From UHGV virus genome UHGV-0067666: a stretch of DNA of 24,833 bases. One strand, given 5' to 3'. This stretch comes from a virus. The notes below the pieces were generated by a model. That model was given only the letters and a program-made list of their open reading frames with translations, was not told where the DNA came from and ran no database searches. Of the stretch, positions 2,490 through 15,288 are shown piece after piece. The position numbers were made by a program, and so were the translations under genes. Numbering within the stretch: position 1 is the first letter of the stretch; every line of letters begins with the position of its first letter.

Positions 2490-3059
2490 TTATCTAACAT
2501 ATTTAACTGTTAAACTTATAATTTTTCCAATTATTTCAACATCTTCTATCTTGCAGTCGAAGGCTCTGTTTCCACCTTCAACGAAGATTCTTCCACCGGG
2601 TAAACGAGTAATGTCGCGGATTGTTATCTCGCCATCAATACTTATTACCCATTTACCATCACGTATATCATCAAATTCTTTATCACAAATAAATTCAGAA
2701 TTGTTATCTGTGATGACAAAAGGTTTTTTAAACGTAGAGGGTAGAAATCCCTTATCAAAAATATAAAAACCGTCTTCACGCAAGGCACCATCAGATAATA
2801 CATATTTAGCAACTTCCATAGTATTTGTATTACCTGAAGTTTGCTTTGAACCATGTCCAGTTGTGAGCCAATTAAGCGAGGTGCCCGTTTCAAGGGCGCA
2901 CTGGATTACCCATTCTGCTGGGAATGAGTCACGCATGTAGCGTGTGGCGAGTGTACTTTTAGAGATTCCTAAATGATCGCACAACGCCTGTCGAGTTTTG
3001 AATCCATAAGCTTCTACCATGCGCTCTATAGCGCCTCGTCCGCCTTTCTCCAAATTCAT
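2490..3059 (-). CDS. cI: Prophage repressor, phage 186 CI-like (N-terminal HTH, C-terminal oligomerisation domain)
   Basis: ATG at 3059 behind GGAG RBS; ~190 aa, HTH segment TRQALCDHLGISKSTLATRY; position between int and a divergent apl-like gene as in 186. Confidence 0.75.
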   Translation of the reverse strand: MNLEKGGRGAIERMVEAYGFKTRQALCDHLGISKSTLATRYMRDSFPAEWVIQCALETGTSLNWLTTGHGSKQTSGNTNTMEVAKYVLSDGALREDGFYIFDKGFLPSTFKKPFVITDNNSEFICDKEFDDIRDGKWVISIDGEITIRDITRLPGGRIFVEGGNRAFDCKIEDVEIIGKIISLTVKYVR

Positions 3060-3083
3060 GGTCACTCCAAGTGAACTTTTATC

Positions 3084-4762: not shown

Positions 4763-4989
4763 TGGCTGATGCAATGGATCTCGTACAGCAGCGCGTTGAA
4801 GAAGAACGCCAGCGCCATATCCGTGCTGCCCGTGCCAAAACACCGGGCGTGTCTCGCGTGCTTTGTATTGAATGTGAAGCGCCAATTCCGCCAGCACGCC
4901 GCCGCGCCATTCTAGGAGTGCAGCTTTGCATTACCTGCCAGGAAATCGCAGAGCTGAAAGGTAAACATTACAACGGAGGTGCTGTATGA
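4762..4989 (+). CDS. TraR/DksA-family C4 zinc-finger protein
   Basis: CIECEAP...(17 aa)...CITCQ pattern (CxxC-x17-CxxC) in a 75-aa protein; translationally coupled to flanking genes. Confidence 0.7.
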   Translation: MADAMDLVQQRVEEERQRHIRAARAKTPGVSRVLCIECEAPIPPARRRAILGVQLCITCQEIAELKGKHYNGGAV

Positions 4990-5843
4990 GCACCATCCTG
5001 AAATGGGCGGGAAATAAAACCGCCATTATGTCCGAACTGAAAAAATACCTTCCTGCTGGCCCGCGACTGGTTGAACCTTTCGCGGGTTCTTGTGCTGTGA
5101 TGATGGCGACGGATTACCCCAGCTATCTGGTTGCGGATATTAATCCTGATTTAATCAACCTCTATAAAAAGATTGCCGCTGATTGCGAAGCGTTTATATC
5201 TCGTGCCAGAGTTTTATTTGAGGAAGCAAACAGTGAGCTGGCTTATTACAACATAAGACAGGAGTTTAATTACTCAACTGAAATTACTGATTTCATGAAG
5301 GCGATATATTTCCTGTATCTCAATCGTCACGGTTACCGTGGTTTATGTCGCTATAACAAGAGCGGGCATTTCAACATTCCCTACGGTAATTATAAAAATC
5401 CGTATTTCCCTGAAAAAGAAATTCGCGCATTTGCAGAGAAAGCCCCGCGGGCAACGTTTATCTGCGCGAGCTTTGATGAAACGCTGGCGATGTTGAAGGC
5501 GCGGGATGTGGTGTATTGCGATCCGCCTTATGACGGTACGTTTTCCGGCTATCACACTGATGGTTTCACTGAAGATGACCAGTATCACCTGGCATCCGTT
5601 CTTGAACATCGAGCATCTGAAGGACATCCGGTCATTGTTTCTAACAGTGACACATCCCTGATCCGTTCGCTGTATCGCAATTTCACTCACCACTACATCA
5701 AGGCAAAACGCAGCATCGGCGTGTCGGCTGGCGAGAGTAAATCTGCAACAGAAATCATTGCTGTTTCCGGGGCGCGCTGCTGGGTGGGATTTGATCCTTC
5801 GCGTGGCGTGGATAGTTCTGCTGTGTACGAGGTGCGTGTATGA
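4986..5843 (+). CDS. dam: DNA adenine methyltransferase, Dam-like (orphan N6-adenine MTase)
   Basis: N-terminal KWAGNK and EPFAGS motifs (AdoMet binding), catalytic DPPY motif; ATGA overlaps with both neighbours. Confidence 0.9.
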
Positions 5844-8260
5844 GTCATGCCGATATGAGCGACTCTAGCGGCTTTAACGAGGCCGCTGCAGCATTTTCAT
5901 GGAACGGCCCGAAAAAGGCCATTAACCCTTATCTGGACCCGGCGGAAGTTGCGCCGGTTTCTGCGCTTTCAAACCTGATCACTCTGTACGCTACCGATAA
6001 CGAGCAGGAACAACTGCGCCGCGAGGCACTGAGTGATCAGGTCTGGGAGCGTTATTTCTTTAATGAATCCCGTGATCCTGTCCAGCGCGAAATGGAGCAG
6101 GATAAGCTCATTAGCCGGGCAAAGTTGGCGCATGAGCAGCAGCGTTTTAACCCGGACATGGTCATTCTGGCAGACGTCAGCGCCCAGCCCTCCCATATCA
6201 GCAAGCCGCTGATGCAACGTATTGAATACTTCAGCAGCCTGGGCAGGCCAAAGGCTTATTCCCGCTATTTACGTGAGACGATTAAGCCATGTCTGGAACG
6301 ACTGGAGCATGTACGCGACAGCCAGCTATCTGCATCTTTTCGTTTTATGGCAAGCCATGTAGGGCTGGACGGCCTGCTGATTCTGCCTGAAATGAGTCAG
6401 GATCAGGTGAAACGCCTGTCTACCCTTGTCGCTGCGCATATGAGCATGTGCCTTGACGCAGCTTGTGGTGATTTGTATGCCACCGATGACGTTAAGCCAG
6501 AAGAAATCCGCAAGACATGGGAAAAGGTGGCAGCGGAAACCCTGCGTCTGGATGTCATCCCGCCTGCGTTTGAGCAACTCCGTCGGAAAAGAAACCGCCG
6601 TAAACCCGTGCCCTATGAACTCATTCCGGGTTCGCTGGCGCGTATGTTGTGCGCCGACTGGTGGTACCGGAAATTATGGAAAATGCGTTGCGAATGGCGG
6701 GAAGAGCAGTTGCGTGCTGTCTGCCTGGTCAGCAAAAAAGCATCTCCCTATGTCAGCTATGAAGCCGTGATGCATAAACGTGAGCAGCGCCGCAAGTCAC
6801 TGGAGTTTTTCCGTTCTCATGAACTGGTGAACGAAGAGGGCGACACGCTGGATATGGAAGACGTGGTAAACGCCAGCAGCAGCAACCCGGCGCACCGCCG
6901 CAATGAGATGATGGCCTGTGTTAAAGGTCTGGAGCTTATCGCGGAAATGCGCGGTGACTGCGCCGTTTTCTACACCATTACCTGTCCGTCACGTTTCCAT
7001 TCTACGCTCAATAACGGCAGACCAAACCCAACCTGGACAAATGCGACGGTAAGACAAAGCAGCGATTATCTGGTCGGCATGTTTGCTGCATTTCGTAAGG
7101 CGATGCACAAAGCCGGGTTGCGCTGGTATGGCGTGCGGGTGGCTGAGCCGCATCATGACGGTACAGTTCACTGGCACCTGTTGTGTTTCATGCGCAAAAA
7201 AGACCGCCGCGCCATTACTGCATTGTTGCGTAAGTTTGCCATCCGTGAAGACCGCGAGGAACTGGGTAATAACACTGGTCCACGCTTTAAATCTGAGCTG
7301 ATAAACCCGCGCAAAGGTACGCCAACAAGCTACATCGCGAAATACATCAGTAAGAACATTGACGGGCGTGGTCTGGCTGGCGAGATCAGCAAGGAAACGG
7401 GTAAATCCCTGCGTGATAACGCTGAATACGTTAATGCCTGGGCGTCTCTGCATCGTGTTCAGCAATTCCGCTTCTTTGGCATTCCGGGGCGTCAGGCTTA
7501 CCGTGAACTGCGATTGCTGGCTGGTCAGGCGGCAAGGCAGCAGGGTGACAAAAAAGTAGGTGCGCCGGTACTGGATAACCCGCGCCTTGATGCAATCCTG
7601 GCTGCTGCTGATGCTGGTTGTTTTGCCACCTACATCATGAAGCAGGGCGGCGTACTGGTTCCCCGCAAATATCACCTCATCAGAACTGCTTATGAAATCA
7701 ACGAAGAGCCGACCGCCTATGGCGATCACGGTATTCGTATTTATGGCATCTGGTCACCCATTGCAGAGGGCAAGATCTGCACTCATGCGGTGAAGTGGAA
7801 AATGGTTCGTAAGGCCGTTGACGTTCAGGAGGCGGCAGCCGACCAGGGCGCTTGCGCCCCTTGGACTCGGACTCGTGGCAATAACTGTCCCCTTGCTGAA
7901 AATTTGAACCAACAAGGGAAAGACAAATCAGCTGATGGGGATACCAGAACGGATATCACCCGCATGGATGACAAGGAGTTGCACGATTACCTGCACAGTA
8001 TGAGCAAAAAAGAGCGCCGGGAACTGGCAGCAAGATTACGCCTGGTTAAACCGAAACGGCGTAAAGACTACAAACAGCGAATTACAGAGTATCAGCGTCA
8101 GCAGCTCGTCTATGAACTGAAGTCCAGAGGATTTGATGGCAGCGAGAAAGAGGTCGATTTGCTCCTTCGCGGTGGCAGTATTCCGTCAGGAGCAGGCCTG
8201 CGTATCTTCTATCGGAACCAGCGTTTGCAGGAAGATGATAAGTGGCGGAACCTGTATTAA
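5840..8260 (+). CDS. A: Replication initiation protein A (rolling-circle nicking endonuclease, P2 gpA family)
   Basis: 806 aa; HWHLL metal-binding motif and YIAKYISKN tyrosine motif typical of P2 A-type initiators; position after early operon. Confidence 0.9.
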
Positions 8261-8413: not shown

Positions 8414-8602
8414 ATGCAGGACTATTTTTTGGAGTCTTTGAAGCTCCAGCGCATTGATTTTTTTCTTAAGCTTGTAGCGGCTAGTGAGTGTAGTGATGAA
8501 GAGAAGGGGCTGGCTTTGCAGTGGGTTTCTGAACTAACAGATGAACTCATGGCAAAAATCAGAACCCACGAATACAACCGCTCAATGGATGTCATCAGTT
8601 GA
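8414..8602 (+). CDS. Small LexA-controlled protein (62 aa), candidate antirepressor (Tum-position gene)
   Basis: ATG at 8414 with AGGAGGA RBS; the longer TTG-initiated ORF 8312..8602 would include the promoter and LexA box. Confidence 0.5.
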   Translation: MQDYFLESLKLQRIDFFLKLVAASECSDEEKGLALQWVSELTDELMAKIRTHEYNRSMDVIS

Positions 8603-8612
8603 GGTGACTTTT

Positions 8613-8846
8613 ATGCGCATTGAAATAATGATCGATAAAGAGCAGAAGATTAGCCAGTCTACCCTGGACGCCCTTGAATCCGAGCTTTACCGTAATCTGC
8701 GCCCCCTGTATCCCAAAACGGTAATTCGTATCCGCAAAGGTAGCTCTAACGGTGTGGAACTGACCGGACTGCAACTGGACGAAGAAAGGAAGCAAGTGAT
8801 GAAAATTATGCAGAAGGTGTGGGAAGACGACAGCTGGCTGCATTAA
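8613..8846 (+). CDS. dinI: DinI-family protein (DNA-damage-inducible protein I homologue)
   Basis: 77 aa beginning MRIEIMIDKEQ with conserved DALESEL and C-terminal acidic W-containing tail, closely paralleling E. coli DinI (MRIEVTIAK...DALAGEL...WESADDWF); GAGG RBS. Confidence 0.8.
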   Translation: MRIEIMIDKEQKISQSTLDALESELYRNLRPLYPKTVIRIRKGSSNGVELTGLQLDEERKQVMKIMQKVWEDDSWLH

Positions 8847-8968: not shown

Positions 8969-9688
8969 ATGACAACTATTAACAAGCATGGGTTATCTAG
9001 AACAATTCCTGAACCTGTAAAACTGGAGGTAAGGCAGCGCTGTGGCTTTGGTTGCGTTGTTTGTGCTTCTCCCATTGTTGAGTATGAGCATGTAATTCCC
9101 ACATACGCTGATGCAAAGGAGCACTCTCCAAATGCAATAGCACTACTTTGTCCTACGTGCCATGCGAAAGTAACGAAACGTCTTTACTCTAAAGAGAAAA
9201 TAATTAAAGCAATGGAATCTCCTGCAGCCTTACAAAAAGGGAATGTGGCCGATATATTGGACTTTTCTGATAGGCATCCAACAATAATATTTGGTGGTGC
9301 GACGTTTGAATCCTGTACTGTACCAATAATGTTTCAAAATGAGCCATTGTTAACCATTGAAAAAGAAAATAATGCTTTTCTTATTTCGGGTAAATTTTAC
9401 GATAGTCAAGGTATTGTTAATCTTGAATTAATTAAGAATGAGTGGGTTTGTAGTGCAAGGCATTGGGATGTTCAGGTTGTTGGTCCTAGAATAACTATTA
9501 TAGAAAAAAGGAAAGGTCCTCGTTTAATTATTAAAGTTGATGCGCCTGAAAGATTGATTGTGGAAAGATTAGATATGTTGGTTAAGGGGACTCGGATTGT
9601 AGGAGACGAACACAAGCTAAGAGTAGGTCCACATCAATTTCACAATTGTGGAGTTTCAAATTGCAATATTGGTTTCTGCTTTGGCTAA
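8969..9688 (+). CDS. HNH-endonuclease domain protein with uncharacterised C-terminal domain (~150 aa)
   Basis: N-terminal CGFGCVVC...EYEHVIP...NAIALLCPTCHAK, a CxxC...EH...N...CxxCH HNH signature; AT-rich codon usage unlike the neighbouring backbone. Confidence 0.7.
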   Translation: MTTINKHGLSRTIPEPVKLEVRQRCGFGCVVCASPIVEYEHVIPTYADAKEHSPNAIALLCPTCHAKVTKRLYSKEKIIKAMESPAALQKGNVADILDFSDRHPTIIFGGATFESCTVPIMFQNEPLLTIEKENNAFLISGKFYDSQGIVNLELIKNEWVCSARHWDVQVVGPRITIIEKRKGPRLIIKVDAPERLIVERLDMLVKGTRIVGDEHKLRVGPHQFHNCGVSNCNIGFCFG

Positions 9689-9801
9689 CTGGAGGTTGGA
9701 AAAAGACCATTTCCTGTAAGCTGAGTATTTCGTACATTTTTGCCAACGCATGTCTATGCCGCATGAAATCGCATGATCGTTTGAGGATCGTTTTTGCTGA
9801 T

Positions 9802-9829
9802 GCCCGCCAGAGCTGGCGGGCTTTTGCTT
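9802..9829 (+). terminator. Rho-independent terminator (GCCCGCCAG / CTGGCGGGC stem followed by TTTTGCTT)
   Basis: 9-bp GC-rich inverted repeat plus T-run seen directly, downstream of the HNH gene. Confidence 0.6.
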
Positions 9830-9870
9830 ATGTCATGCAGGTGCATGAAAACCACTACACAAAGCGGGCA

Positions 9871-9889
9871 GGCGTGGCGGGGATACGAG
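9871..9889. other. Candidate cos site (cohesive-end sequence) GGCGTGGCGGGGATACGAG
   Basis: From memory, P2/186 cohesive ends are 19-nt G-rich sequences beginning GGCG(A/T)GGCGGGGA; first 13 nt match that recollection; orientation relative to the portal gene matches P2. Confidence 0.35.
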
Positions 9890-9991
9890 CGCGCGCTAAC
9901 TCATAAATCCTAGATTATTAGTGGATTTATCTCATTGAAATGTGCACTATTCCCAGCATTGAGTTGTACCAGATGTCTTTATGGAGGGACT

Positions 9992-11758
9992 GTGGCTTTT
10001 GTAACTGATATTCGGCTTGAAGATAATGCTATTGCTGCACCTGCGACAGCACAGGTTATGGCTCAGAGGCTAGGATCTGTATTACGTAAGAGATATGAAG
10101 AATTCATCCATAAAAGAGAGTGTGCACCAGGCCAAGCAGACTATGATGTAAAAATGGCTAGCAGGGCTTTAGCTGCATTCACTATGTATCAGTTAGGATG
10201 TGTGGATGATAAGTATGCAGGGGAGTCTGTATGTGATAGTAGTGAAGATGGTGGTATAGATGGAATAGCAATCAACCATAACGAAAAAATCGTTGTTGTT
10301 GTTCAATCAAAATTTCACCAATCGGGAAACGGCACTTGGACAAGAGCCGATTTTATGTGTTTTAAGGATGCTTGTGAGAAGCTACAAAGTGAAAGATACG
10401 AATTATTTGATTCCATATTGCAAAATAAAAGCGGGGAAATAAGTGCGGCTTTAAGTAGTTTTGAATACAAGTTCATCTTTGCGATGGCGCATACAGGTAA
10501 AAAAGGTGCTGCAGAGGAAATATTAAATGATATGCGGGAATGGCAATATCAATTAAACGCTGCAGCTTTTACACCTGAGGATGAGCCTAAAGAGAACTGG
10601 GGATTTCAGGTTCATTTAATATCCTCTGAAGATATGATGCATTGGTTACAGAATGGCTCTCGAAATCAAATTGATCTTAACAGGGTTGAAATTGAGCGTT
10701 TTGGATTTTTGAATGAACCATATCAAGCTTTTTACGGGGCTATTAGTGGTGATCAAGTTGCAGAATGGTGGGAAGAGCATGGTGCTCGATTATTTACAAA
10801 AAACATAAGGAATATGCTTGGTAAAACAGAAGTGAATGAGGAAATAAAAAAGACAGCTATAGATAATCCTGATATGTTTTGGTTTTATAATAATGGGATT
10901 ACTGTACTGGTTAAGGAAGTTGTTCCTCATAGACGAAACGCAGCTCCTAATATAGAGAGAGGGATTTTTGATTTTCGTGATGTAAGTGTCATTAATGGTG
11001 CACAAACAGTCAGTAGTATTGGCGCATGTAAAGATGCGCTTGGTGAAAACATATATAGACTCAAAGTGCCAGCTAGATTCATTGTTATAGATGATGATAC
11101 TGATAATTTAACTGCAAATGCAATTACAAAAGCTAACAATTTCCAAAATAGAGTATTGGGAAGAGATTTTGCATCGCAGCAGGCAGATCAACATAGATTG
11201 GCAAGGGAGTTAGTGCTTGAAGGATATCAATATCAGTTACTAAGAACAGATGAAGATCATTCACAGACAAATACGAAAGTCATTGACTTGGATGAGGCGC
11301 TCAATGCACTCGCATGTTTAAGTAAAAATAATACGGTTGTATCGACACTAAAATCAAATCGCGGTAGGTTTTTTGAAAATTTTGAAGGCTCTCTATATAA
11401 AACTATTTTCAATCCAAGATTAAGTGGTTTAAAACTTATCAATACTGTTCTACATTTTAGAGTTATAGATAAGTTGATCGGTAAAACATTACTATCAGTA
11501 GATAAAACGACCCATAGTCGCAAGCATTTAATTATTACGCATGGTAATAGATACTATGCGTCTGTACTATTGAGCAACGTTTCTGGGATACATAATAGCT
11601 CAGAAATTCTTGTTCCAGATGAAAAAAATCTTTCCGAAGAATTAAGTGCATTAATTCAACGTGCTGAAGAGTACATTGAAGATAATTACCCGAATGCCTA
11701 TCCGGCAAGATTTTTTGCAAATCCAACGAAAATACAAGAGTTATACGATAATGTTTAA
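9992..11758 (+). CDS. AIPR-like (abortive infection phage resistance family) protein with N-terminal PD-(D/E)xK-like nuclease motif
   Basis: ORF 9935..11758 (TTG); likely start GTG 9992 behind GGAGGG, or ATG 10058; motif DGGIDGIAINHNEKIVVVVQSKF resembles a D...(E/Q)xK nuclease core; later NGITVL and INGAQT motifs recalled as AIPR-typical; AT-rich. Confidence 0.65.
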   Translation: MAFVTDIRLEDNAIAAPATAQVMAQRLGSVLRKRYEEFIHKRECAPGQADYDVKMASRALAAFTMYQLGCVDDKYAGESVCDSSEDGGIDGIAINHNEKIVVVVQSKFHQSGNGTWTRADFMCFKDACEKLQSERYELFDSILQNKSGEISAALSSFEYKFIFAMAHTGKKGAAEEILNDMREWQYQLNAAAFTPEDEPKENWGFQVHLISSEDMMHWLQNGSRNQIDLNRVEIERFGFLNEPYQAFYGAISGDQVAEWWEEHGARLFTKNIRNMLGKTEVNEEIKKTAIDNPDMFWFYNNGITVLVKEVVPHRRNAAPNIERGIFDFRDVSVINGAQTVSSIGACKDALGENIYRLKVPARFIVIDDDTDNLTANAITKANNFQNRVLGRDFASQQADQHRLARELVLEGYQYQLLRTDEDHSQTNTKVIDLDEALNALACLSKNNTVVSTLKSNRGRFFENFEGSLYKTIFNPRLSGLKLINTVLHFRVIDKLIGKTLLSVDKTTHSRKHLIITHGNRYYASVLLSNVSGIHNSSEILVPDEKNLSEELSALIQRAEEYIEDNYPNAYPARFFANPTKIQELYDNV

Positions 11759-11761
11759 ACT

Positions 11762-11788
11762 AAAGGGAGGTTGCCTCCCTTTTTTTTA
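11762..11788 (+). terminator. Rho-independent terminator (AAAGGGAGG-ttg-CCTCCC + T8)
   Basis: 6-bp GC stem, 3-nt loop, run of 8 T, immediately after the stop of the AIPR-like gene and abutting the 3' end of the convergent portal gene. Confidence 0.75.
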
Positions 11789-11789
11789 A

Positions 11790-12818
11790 TTAGAAATGGT
11801 ATTCTTGGAATTCAATAACACCTTCTTCTATGAAATTGTTTATTTCTTGTAATCTTTTTTGCAATGGCAATAATTCATTACGTACAAATACTTTACTCGC
11901 CTTCTCTACATCTCCAAAGCCCCCAACATTATTAGGCATTATCCCCATCATTTGCGGCGGCACACGGTGTGCCGCCATCATGTCGTCCCGACTCACGTTC
12001 TTGATATTCAGAAACTCATCCTTCGCCGCGACTTCTGACAACGGGATAATCTGAAGCCCGTCCTTTTTGCCGTTAGGAGAGTACATAAACAGGTTGCGGA
12101 AGTTGCCTGGCCCTTTGGCGCTTTTCATTGCGTTGCGGAGGTTGTTCACATCTTCTTGGTTCTGCGCGGCATCGGTCATGTACATGATGAAACCTGCATG
12201 GCTGCCGTTGATGTAATACTTACGGCGGAACAGTGTGGCGGACTCGTTGAGCAGGGCTGACGGGATGGCAGAAAGATAACCTGGCAGGCCGTAGATCTCC
12301 TGGTTGATGTCCGGTTCCATCAGATGAAAAATGCTGCCTTTCGTGAACTGATACGGCTGGGCTGTCATACCGTATTGCACAAACCAGTAGGTATCCAGGT
12401 CTAATCCGCGTCGGGTGTATTTTGCCAAAGCTGGCTCAAGGGCGATAACTTCACCAAAGCGGTTCGTGCGTTTCTCCAGGTAGGCGTTACCAAATACCAG
12501 ATAGTCCTGCACAAAACGCGAAAAAGCCTGCTGGCTAAGCAGCGGATGAGGGATATAGGTACTGGTCAGAATGTTGCACTTTACTGCAATCGGGGAACTG
12601 TGATGCACGGCGGCGCGGAAGGTGCGCGCCAGTCCATTAAAGCTGACGGGCGGCTCATACCAGCGATCCATCTGTACGCATTCCACATAGTCCAGCAGTT
12701 CGCGGCGGTCCAGCACGGGGATGGGATCACCAAAGCTGAAAGCCTCAGCCGTTGGGCCGTTGCTTGGTTTTGTGTCGTGATCAACTGTTACCTGCTTGGT
12801 GTTTTTACGTTTGCTCAT
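11790..12818 (-). CDS. Q: Portal protein (P2 gpQ family)
   Basis: 342 aa, size and position as P2 Q, immediately downstream of terminase-region genes on minus strand; start ATG overlaps stop of upstream ORF (ATGA). Confidence 0.8.
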   Translation of the reverse strand: MSKRKNTKQVTVDHDTKPSNGPTAEAFSFGDPIPVLDRRELLDYVECVQMDRWYEPPVSFNGLARTFRAAVHHSSPIAVKCNILTSTYIPHPLLSQQAFSRFVQDYLVFGNAYLEKRTNRFGEVIALEPALAKYTRRGLDLDTYWFVQYGMTAQPYQFTKGSIFHLMEPDINQEIYGLPGYLSAIPSALLNESATLFRRKYYINGSHAGFIMYMTDAAQNQEDVNNLRNAMKSAKGPGNFRNLFMYSPNGKKDGLQIIPLSEVAAKDEFLNIKNVSRDDMMAAHRVPPQMMGIMPNNVGGFGDVEKASKVFVRNELLPLQKRLQEINNFIEEGVIEFQEYHF

Positions 12819-13522
12819 TCTGCCAGTTCCTTGCTAGCGAGAGGCCATTCGCACATAAACAGCATTTTCCAGTCCTCTTCTGATAATTCTTTTTTCATAT
12901 CGTTCAGCCAGTTATCAGTAAACAACATTGCTCCAGATGCTGCTGCGTCATCTGCGGTGAACACCATGCTGGTTACGCTGTTGTTTCTGCATAGCTTTTT
13001 ATATTCCTGCCGTGCCTCTGGGTTAGGGCTGGGAGTGGTGTAGTAGGTGGCGTGGTAGTGTGCGTGCATAGAAATCCCTTTAGCGATGGCAATCATATTT
13101 CTCGGTGATTCACTCCAGGCATACTCTGACACGTAAACATTTCCACTGAGTGCGGAGGTGAGACTGCTGAGGTCGGTAAAATAAATTACTGCACCATTCG
13201 GAAGCTCCAGATGACTTTTGCCTGATTTTATTTTTCCAGTGTGCGTATAAGCTGCGGCCTGGCTTAAGAATGCTGATACACAGGCTTTGATTGCCTGCGC
13301 AGATGCTGTGCTGCAGCAGAGGAAAATCTGGTTACGCCCGGTATGCAGTGCATCGTTCAGGGCTTCATAGGAAAAAAAGAAATCCGCGCCTGCCTGGCGC
13401 ATTTTTGTGAGTACACGGTTTCTACTCTTTGGGCCAGTGTTCCACTCATACTGGTAAGCAAAGAAAAAGCTATCCACCGGAAGTCCCGCGATAGTCATGA
13501 GGTTAGTTGGGATTGGGGGCAT
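12815..13522 (-). CDS. Terminase large-subunit ATPase-domain paralogue (235 aa), extra gene between P and Q
   Basis: Aligns to the central region of the adjacent 588-aa terminase (e.g. FFFSYEALNDALHTGRNQIFLCCSTAS vs FYFAREALIDALLTGRNQIFLSASKAQ; GNVYVSEYAW vs GNLYLDEYFW; YYTTPS vs YFSTPS); GGAG RBS; start overlaps P stop (TGATG) and stop overlaps Q start (ATGA). Confidence 0.7.
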   Translation of the reverse strand: MPPIPTNLMTIAGLPVDSFFFAYQYEWNTGPKSRNRVLTKMRQAGADFFFSYEALNDALHTGRNQIFLCCSTASAQAIKACVSAFLSQAAAYTHTGKIKSGKSHLELPNGAVIYFTDLSSLTSALSGNVYVSEYAWSESPRNMIAIAKGISMHAHYHATYYTTPSPNPEARQEYKKLCRNNSVTSMVFTADDAAASGAMLFTDNWLNDMKKELSEEDWKMLFMCEWPLASKELAE

Positions 13523-15288
13523 CAAAAAATCTCCACAATATTGCTGGTATTGGCGGATTCGCCCTGCAGCGGTTCGTTAAACAGTGCGTGCATCGTTGCC
13601 CAGGCCAGATCGGCGTGGCTGGCTTCTTCGCTGCGGCTGGCTTCATAGGTTGGGCGGTTGCCGCTCGCGGTGGTGGCGCGACGGATTGCCATGAATGACT
13701 GCGCTATGTCGGTGTGTCCGGCGTCAAACTCCAGACGGCGGTGGCTGATAATGTCGTAGGCCTTGAGTACCAGGGCGTTTTTAACATTGGGGTTATAGAC
13801 AAACTCCCGGACGGCTGGAAAAAACGCTTTCACGTTCTCGTAAACCCCGTGGCCGACACCTGTCGAGTCGATGCCGATGTAGGTCACGTTGTACTGCTCG
13901 GTCAGTTTTTTGATGGCGTCAGCCTGGGCGCGGAAGTCCATCCCACGCCACTGGTGACGCTCAAGAATGCGGAACTTACCACCAGGCACGGCTGGCGGTG
14001 CCACCACTACGCATCCGGCGCTGTCGCCGTTTTGCGTACCTTTTGCCGGGTCATAACCGATCCACACTTCGCGCCAGCCAAACGGGCGCAGAGCCAGTGC
14101 ATGAAAGTCGGTCCAGACTTCCCAGCTGTCCACCATGCACGCCTGCAGCTCGCTGAGCGGGAACACGGACGCGAGATCGTCCACAAACTCGCACATCAGC
14201 AGGTTCTGGTATTCGTCCGGGCTGTACTCCATGCGCAACTGGTCAAGGTCGAACAGGTTACAGCCGCCGCGCACCGCATCTTCCACGGTGACTATCTGGC
14301 GGTATTGCCCGTCTGCGCACAGCAGGCCGGGGGCCAGATTGCTGTGGGACAGGTCGATGTCCACCTTGTCGGCCTTGTTGCGCCCACGGTTGAACAGCGC
14401 ACCGGACCAGAACGGATAAGCACTGTGTGTCAGGCTGGATGGCGTGGAAAAATAGGTTTGTCGCCATTTTTTGTGAATAGCCATACCGGAAGCCACTTTG
14501 CGCAGCTCCTGGAATTTCGGTATCCAGAAATATTCATCCAGATACAGGTTGCCGTGATAACTCTGGGCCGTGCGGGCATTGGTGCCGAGGAAGTAAAGCG
14601 TGGCTCCGTTAGGAAGCACCATCGGATCGCCTTTCAGCTCCACCTCGACTTCTTTGGCGAAGTCTATGATGTACTGCTTAAAGACGTGAGCCTGTGCCTT
14701 ACTGGCAGAAAGGAAAATCTGGTTACGTCCGGTAAGCAGGGCGTCAATCAGGGCTTCACGGGCAAAGTAAAAGGTCGCGCCGATCTGGCGTGACTTCAGC
14801 AGGTTGCGGATGCGGTTGGTTTTTCCGGCTTCCCACCAGTGGCGCTGGTAGTTGAACATGGAGGAATGGAAAATTTCTTCCAGCTTCTCAATCTGTTCAT
14901 CGGTGAAAACATTCTTTTCCGGCTGACGGCGCGGGCCTTTGTTGCGGTTGGCGACGTTAGGGTTTAAGTCGGCTTCGTTACCGCCATTGTTAAACTTGCC
15001 GATCCGCGCGTGGCGCTCCGACTGGCGCGCCAGCAGGTCAATTTCTTTGAAATCTTTCCCTTCTTTGTGCTCCTTCATAATGAGCTGGCAGTAGCGTGCG
15101 GCGGTGGTGAGCTGCATCTGATCCAGCGGCCCATAGTCACCCCACTTGTCGCGTTTTTTCCAGCTGTGAACGGTTGCAACTTTCTCGCCCAGCATTTCAG
15201 CAATGCGGGCTACGCGGTATCCCTGAAAGTACAGCAGCATGGCCTGCCGACGGGGATCGAGATCTGCGGGTGTCAGTGTGGTGTTCAT
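13522..15288 (-). CDS. P: Terminase large subunit (ATPase/nuclease, P2 gpP family)
   Basis: 588 aa, size as P2 P; ATPase-like core with hhhhDE motif LYLDEY; divergent from the scaffold operon as in P2. Confidence 0.9.
   Translation of the reverse strand: MNTTLTPADLDPRRQAMLLYFQGYRVARIAEMLGEKVATVHSWKKRDKWGDYGPLDQMQLTTAARYCQLIMKEHKEGKDFKEIDLLARQSERHARIGKFNNGGNEADLNPNVANRNKGPRRQPEKNVFTDEQIEKLEEIFHSSMFNYQRHWWEAGKTNRIRNLLKSRQIGATFYFAREALIDALLTGRNQIFLSASKAQAHVFKQYIIDFAKEVEVELKGDPMVLPNGATLYFLGTNARTAQSYHGNLYLDEYFWIPKFQELRKVASGMAIHKKWRQTYFSTPSSLTHSAYPFWSGALFNRGRNKADKVDIDLSHSNLAPGLLCADGQYRQIVTVEDAVRGGCNLFDLDQLRMEYSPDEYQNLLMCEFVDDLASVFPLSELQACMVDSWEVWTDFHALALRPFGWREVWIGYDPAKGTQNGDSAGCVVVAPPAVPGGKFRILERHQWRGMDFRAQADAIKKLTEQYNVTYIGIDSTGVGHGVYENVKAFFPAVREFVYNPNVKNALVLKAYDIISHRRLEFDAGHTDIAQSFMAIRRATTASGNRPTYEASRSEEASHADLAWATMHALFNEPLQGESANTSNIVEIF

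Follow-up and report, generated by a model that had tools for sequence, protein, structure and literature searches.

An AIPR/AbiU-family gene between cos and the portal gene of a P2/186-like prophage: a candidate single-protein anti-phage system

Introduction

AbiU of Lactococcus lactis (AbiUi or AbiU-1; PADLOC, DefenseFinder) is a plasmid-borne, single-protein system. It has been described as FokI-like (PMC13064643), and AbiU-1 has been placed in the PD-(D/E)xK superfamily (PMC13099982; bioRxiv 2024.10.26.620412). According to Dai et al. 2001, as summarised in PMC13064643, lactococcal AbiU delays phage transcription; plating efficiency is lowered only 10- to 100-fold (PMC13064643). AIPR/AbiU proteins are widespread and are counted by defence-finding software, and AbiU has been reported in P2 and P4 hotspots alike (2026 survey, PMC13586616). 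The P2 hotspot in question is the cos-proximal gpA-gpQ interval, for which Rousset et al. 2022 (PMC9122126) counted 1,650 gene arrangements across 18,150 loci.

In P2 itself, cosL occupies positions 1-19, tQ 160-181 and the Q stop codon 187, with no gene between them; old and tin are localized beyond cos, towards gpA. The window, i.e., the whole stretch of viral DNA analysed here (24,833 nucleotides, UHGV-0067666), had previously been read from its letters and open reading frames only. That sequence-only reading proposed an AIPR-like nuclease gene between a cos-like sequence and the portal gene. Here this gene, its borders and its slot are compared with the described systems.

Results and discussion

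Organisation of the prophage

The window is a P2/186-like prophage, with the following genes around the slot:

1065-2174: integrase
2490-3065, minus strand: CI-type repressor, of the 186 type (Phage_CI_repr + Phage_CI_C) rather than the P2 C type
4986-5843, plus strand: Dam-type, D12-class adenine methyltransferase, just upstream of gpA and overlapping it
5840-8260: gpA
8541-8846: DinI
8969-9688, plus strand: AT-rich cargo gene with an HNH motif, 239 aa, on the gpA side of cos (Pfam HNH, E 2.4e-5; PHROG 6544, E 2.5e-111)
11790-12818, minus strand: portal gene (gpQ homologue), which bounds the slot on the right (Pfam Phage_portal, E 3e-17)
12815-13525, minus strand: paralogue of the terminase ATPase domain, 236 aa (Pfam Terminase_6N, E 3.7e-16; PHROG 3746, E 2.5e-84)
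13522-15288: terminase
downstream of the terminase gene: head genes

The HNH gene has 38% GC (GC3 27%) and carries its HNH motif at the N-terminus; PHROG 6544 is of unknown function, and the gene found at this place in relatives is annotated either «endonuclease» or «hypothetical protein».

The open reading frame and its start

The frame 9935-11758 (plus strand) is uninterrupted and counts 607 aa if read from TTG. Given its own base composition, the chance of 588 stop-free codons is about 1e-21. The features of the gene and its product are:

9983-9987, plus strand: Shine-Dalgarno GGAGG, 4 nt 5' of GTG 9992, read from sequence
9992-11758, plus strand: AIPR/AbiU-family gene, 588 aa plus stop (Pfam AIPR, PADLOC AbiU, PHROG 1841)
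10124-10636, plus strand: predicted N-terminal nuclease domain of the PD-(D/E)xK type, Mrr/MspJI-like, spanning about aa 45-215
10235 (D82), D86, 10259 (D90), 10304 (Q105) and 10310 (K107), plus strand: proposed catalytic residues
10793-11680, plus strand: AIPR domain, aa 268-563, proposed sensor or regulator

The start had been left open between TTG 9935, GTG 9992 and ATG 10058, for a protein of about 590-600 aa. GTG 9992 is the most likely start, giving 588 aa, because (i) it is preceded by GGAGG; (ii) PGAP/RefSeq gives 588 aa for the identical protein, as does a database cluster representative with 100% identity; (iii) it is the first-residue column in 60/60 aligned homologues (52-87% identity); (iv) residues 1-22 are conserved across this alignment, N12 and T19 being invariant. 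TTG 9935 and ATG 10058 are rejected on these grounds, and the Met of ATG 10058 is not conserved among the homologues. The GTG of the earlier trio is thus retained, while the TTG start and the longer protein are not.

The AT-richness noted earlier is borne out by the composition: the gene has 36.5% GC, vs. 53% for gpA and 56% for structural genes, and its GC3 is 25%, vs. 57% in gene A, 59% in the portal gene and 70% in the terminase gene.

Assignment to the AIPR/AbiU family

On the basis of sequence profiles, the gene belongs to the AIPR/AbiU family. Pfam AIPR (PF10592) matches aa 268-563 with 121.5 bits (cutoff 25; E 7e-35) over profile positions 1-305 of 308, and the same profile is matched by all 60 homologues. 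The PADLOC AbiU profile (PDLC02357) is matched at near full length (positions 45-512 of 537; E 7.4e-25), and PHROG 1841, an abortive-infection family, is matched with E 7e-173. WP_021542068.1, an AIPR family protein in RefSeq, is the same protein (100% identity). The family had first been proposed from two motifs; the Pfam and PADLOC searches agree with it, and both motifs are indeed present, NGITVL at 10892-10909 and INGAQT at 10991-11008, as is the PD-(D/E)xK-like motif DGGIDGIAINHNEKIVVVVQSKF at 10247-10315.

The window protein, with its near-full-length match to the AbiU profile (E 7e-25), and lactococcal AbiU are both single proteins with a predicted PD-(D/E)xK or FokI-like nuclease domain. 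They differ by host, by phage targets and by location, i.e., plasmid for the lactococcal protein and prophage for that of the window. Delayed phage transcription is a phenotype known for lactococcal AbiU alone, the likeness of the window protein to it being profile-based. Part of the AIPR domain is also present in MzaE of the Mza system (PADLOC E 1.5e-13), but only about 150 residues match and no MzaA-D genes are found nearby; with 58 bits vs. an equivalog cutoff of 1050 (NCBIfam NF041935), this assignment is rejected.

Phage AIPR proteins are more distant. Those of Salmonella phage RE-2010 (YP_007003507), of Klebsiella Kapieceevirus and of Aggregatibacter phage S1249 all have the AIPR domain, NNG(I/V)T, NG(A/G)QT, D82, D86 and D90, but their identity to the window protein is no more than 21-35%; the expected QSK is aligned with QCY in the Klebsiella protein. 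Existing annotations name the RE-2010 and Kapieceevirus products AIPR or abortive-infection proteins, and distant AIPR genes (21-27% identity) lie in the same cos-to-portal slot in RE-2010 and in Klebsiella P2-like phages.

The S1249 homologue (L006, 2233-4614; 35% identity), the closest one among phage records, is localized directly downstream of the repressor gene and on the same strand. This is a classic position for a moron expressed in lysogeny, unlike the cos slot.

The N-terminal domain as a predicted nuclease

D82, D86, D90, Q105 and K107 are invariant in the 60 homologues. In the D...(D/E/Q)xK pattern, the second acidic position is Q instead of D or E. The MspJI family may likewise use D...QxK. 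An AlphaFold2 model built from the 60-sequence alignment (mean pLDDT 84) contains, in order, a strand at 91-95 after D90, a strand at 100-107 bearing QxK, a helix at 118-132 and a strand at 160-167. This order of strands fits the PD-(D/E)xK core, and the alpha-beta-beta-beta-alpha-beta fold is found in the modelled protein.

The sequence profile is less generous. Mrr_cat aligns exactly with residues 80-111, but below threshold (13.9 bits vs. a cutoff of 21; E 0.06-0.17); it is found at E<5 in only 3 of the 60 homologues, and Mrr_cat_2 in 3 more. A nuclease fold with catalytic-type residues at the N-terminus is thus supported by the predicted structure and sub-threshold by sequence profile. The published fold analyses of AbiU agree with the structural view. 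The earlier nuclease call stands as regards the modelled fold and the invariant residues; the Mrr_cat match, at 13.9 bits and E 0.06, does not carry it.

MspJI/AspBHI, the FokI cleavage domain and Mrr-type nucleases (AF1548, LlaBIII) are only 9-13% identical to the window protein. Their partner domains are unrelated to it, and their recognition domains are absent from it. An SRA-like domain for binding modified bases, joined to the nuclease in modification-dependent type IV/IIM enzymes of the MspJI family, was not found by Pfam, NCBIfam or fold search.

The AIPR domain

Two motifs of the AIPR domain are invariant, NNGIT (aa 300-304) and NGAQT (aa 335-339), and NNG(I/V)T and NG(A/G)QT are kept even in the phage proteins of 21-35% identity. 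Sequence and profile searches of the PDB gave no relative of the protein or of its profile, and a Foldseek search of the PDB with the full model gave nothing significant. As the domain has no convincing structural relative, the sensor role proposed for it is a guess.

One speculation, which we regard as doubtful, is that the AIPR domain could be a divergent ParB/sulfiredoxin-type switch that binds nucleotides or DNA, with AIPR/AbiU proteins being functional analogues of GmrSD/BrxU in reversed order, and, separately, that the 8-nt insertion point seen in P2-like phages and P4 (see below) could stem from a packaging-linked exchange of cassettes. In such a scheme the strand-NGAQT-helix motif may stand in for the DGQQR/DGQHR motif of DUF262 and DndB. 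If the domain were ParB-like, an NTP- or DNA-gated sensor would license an Mrr-type nuclease in AIPR/AbiU.

cos, terminators and borders of the cassette

The elements on both sides of the gene are:

9748-9897: conserved cos region
9802-9821, plus strand: intrinsic terminator upstream of cos (-20.1 kcal/mol, z -3.5)
9871-9889: 19-mer GGCGTGGCGGGGATACGAG, 186-like cohesive-end sequence, by homology to annotated P2 cosL/cosR
9898-9991, plus strand: AT-rich part of the cassette upstream of the gene (36% GC)
11762-11782: hairpin terminator that separates the AIPR gene from the convergent portal gene (9-bp stem, 8 U, -14.6 kcal/mol)

The 19-mer has 5 mismatches to the annotated P2 cos and 4 to the cos of 186. 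Together with both of its flanks, it aligns with the annotated cosR/cosL junction of P2 (NC_001895) and with the equivalent stretch in three other P2-like loci. The cos assignment thus rests on more than resemblance, since the site is homologous to the annotated one of P2, and what had been called cos-like can be named accordingly.

Both terminators of the sequence-only reading were recovered, with the energies listed above. The one at 9802-9821 closes the transcription unit of DinI and the cargo that precedes cos. The hairpin at 11762-11782 is 8 nt from the portal stop codon (11790) and corresponds in position to tQ of P2. The «GC-rich island» holds locally (62% GC over 9796-9897) but not for the whole intergenic stretch 9689-9934 (48%).

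The conserved cos region is present in about 1,270 of 5,426 complete E. coli genomes, 9748-9897 being common to about 1,260 E. coli records. Its conservation ends 8 nt past the 19-mer, after CGCGCGCT; from there on the window, E. coli E423, the Klebsiella phage and RE-2010 diverge completely. This sets the left border of the cassette at 9898. A P4 hotspot clone (Rousset supplement) has a similar layout, with ...GGCGAGGCGGGGAAAGCACTGCGCGTT followed by variable sequence. Taken with the four loci, this suggests that the cos-adjacent junction is a very sharp recombination boundary, common to phage and satellite.

No convincing sigma-70 promoter was found in the 94 nt before the gene, a scan of 9880-9995 giving nothing at 9/12 or at 7/12 matches.

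The slot and its cargo

The gene does lie between cos and the portal gene, at a place where P2 has none, as the sequence-only reading held. It differs in this from P2 old and tin, which are on the gpA side, whereas the AIPR gene is on the portal side, empty in P2 and filled in most of the E. coli relatives sampled. In a survey of 60 evenly spaced records, the cos and portal matches could be joined in 25, one of which has the AIPR arrangement; in most other sampled records the two matches are more than 1.8 kb apart. Other cargo occupies the gap in 22 of the remaining 24 joined rows, all from E. coli P2-like prophages, and only 2 have an empty, P2-like gap (H93 and H95, spans of 833 and 837 nt). 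The cargo found in relatives, defence-type genes among it, includes PIN, P-loop NTPase, TIR, DUF4145, DprA, S1 peptidase, RES, GTP pyrophosphokinase, TIGR02391 and DUF262.

The slot is thus unusual relative to P2 itself, not relative to the E. coli P2-like lineage, and the description «unusual slot» has to be withdrawn, the more so as the published hotspot lists the exact protein: Table S5A of PMC9122126 names WP_021542068 twelve times among the P2 hotspot contents, e.g., as «KAP_NTPase + AIPR + DinI». The window shares with that hotspot cargo the interval beside cos as well as the identical protein; gpA (5840-8260), cos (9871-9889) and the portal gene (11790-12818) are in the corresponding order, and the content varies among relatives. 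That the gene is cargo, as had been suspected, agrees with its foreign composition and with its presence in only 12-18 of the approximately 1,270 E. coli genomes that have the same cos region.

A self-contained cassette

The AIPR gene, a single ORF, has a ribosome-binding site and a terminator to itself, and is a self-contained, horizontally acquired cassette. Before cos, the identical protein has different neighbours: HNH in the window, DarT plus a macro-domain protein (DarTG) in E423, DUF2971 in CH4794; KAP_NTPase and AAA_21 are further partners in the published table (PMC9122126). A two-gene system with the HNH gene is rejected, since the HNH gene is set apart from the AIPR gene by cos and a terminator, and the identical AIPR protein is accompanied elsewhere by DarTG, DUF2971, KAP_NTPase or AAA_21.

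In Pectobacterium, Vibrio and Pseudomonas, the homologues (52-77% identity) share no neighbour, being localized in unrelated islands or alone among housekeeping genes. By tblastn, relatives occur on plasmids too, with no lactococcal match among the plasmid matches listed.

The E423 prophage (L001, NZ_CM173464.1) is degraded: its portal gene is truncated, an IS5 fragment is present and tail genes are fused after the portal remnant. Its AIPR gene and its DarT/macro-domain pair are intact.

Proposed function

For this locus we favour, with a probability of about 0.7, an anti-phage system made of one prophage-encoded AIPR/AbiU protein with a predicted nuclease, abortive or growth-arresting in its outcome. 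Activity against phages, substrate, trigger, regulation by the AIPR domain and the preference for an abortive over a direct outcome are inferred. The lysogen would express the AIPR protein, whose C-terminal AIPR domain would hold the N-terminal Mrr/MspJI-type nuclease (D90...Q105xK107) inactive, or would direct it. Upon infection by a competing phage, the nuclease would cut nucleic acid, most probably DNA. This cutting would block both replication of the phage and expression of its genes, in the manner reported for lactococcal AbiU with its delay of phage transcription, and the infection would end in abortion or growth arrest. In the literature, neither an experimental test of the window protein nor an activity report for an E. 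coli AIPR/AbiU member was found.

The same nuclease might instead act as a direct, restriction-like enzyme that senses a feature of the incoming phage DNA (e.g., a base modification, as MspJI/AspBHI do) and cuts it without harm to the host. We hold this version to be unlikely. Still less probable, and by a good deal, is that the gene provides no working defence in its host, being a selfish or addictive passenger, an inactive remnant or a gene for the prophage's own cycle, e.g., for competition with P4-type satellites or related P2-like phages only. The absence of a clear promoter upstream of the gene is in its favour, and so is the degraded state of several carrier prophages such as E423 (truncated portal gene, IS remnants). 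A P4-hotspot AIPR gene (pFR77) was also cloned and is not among the seven P4-hotspot systems reported active against eight phages (PMC9122126). On the other hand, the window and E. coli E423 (WP_021542068.1) both have the 588-aa frame intact, with 100% identity. The protein is also conserved over its full length down to 52% identity (Vibrio, Pseudomonas, cyanobacteria), about 150 columns being invariant, a pattern that points to an active protein under purifying selection.

A place between cos and the portal gene would also suit a core gene, conserved among P2/186-like phages, that serves packaging or the virion, and this position is all that speaks for such a role. The idea is refuted: the gene is absent from P2 and from nearly all E. 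coli P2-like prophages with this cos region, unrelated genes fill the same slot in relatives, its composition is foreign and its homologues exist outside phages.

The abortive or growth-arresting AIPR/AbiU reading is preferred. Both the gene and its cargo slot have been catalogued before, which makes the locus an ordinary case of something known. It is one more defence-type moron of a temperate phage in the published cos-proximal hotspot, and adds little that is new; the remaining interest lies in how AIPR/AbiU proteins in general work. As a compact single-gene cassette with clear borders, it would be a convenient entry point for work on this family.

The neighbouring terminase paralogue

Flanked by the portal gene and the full-length terminase gene, the 236-aa gene at 12815-13525 overlaps each of them by 4 nt. 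Its product is 32% identical to residues 142-368 of the window's terminase, with altered Walker-like positions (RQIGAT to RQAGAD, LDEY to VSEY). It is rare, being found in 21 of about 1,216 E. coli genomes that have this region and, among the phage matches listed, in Escherichia phage 500465-1 only. It is also present in four strains with the same AIPR gene, i.e., CH4794, ARL09/232, 1008S13 and MSB1_9D.
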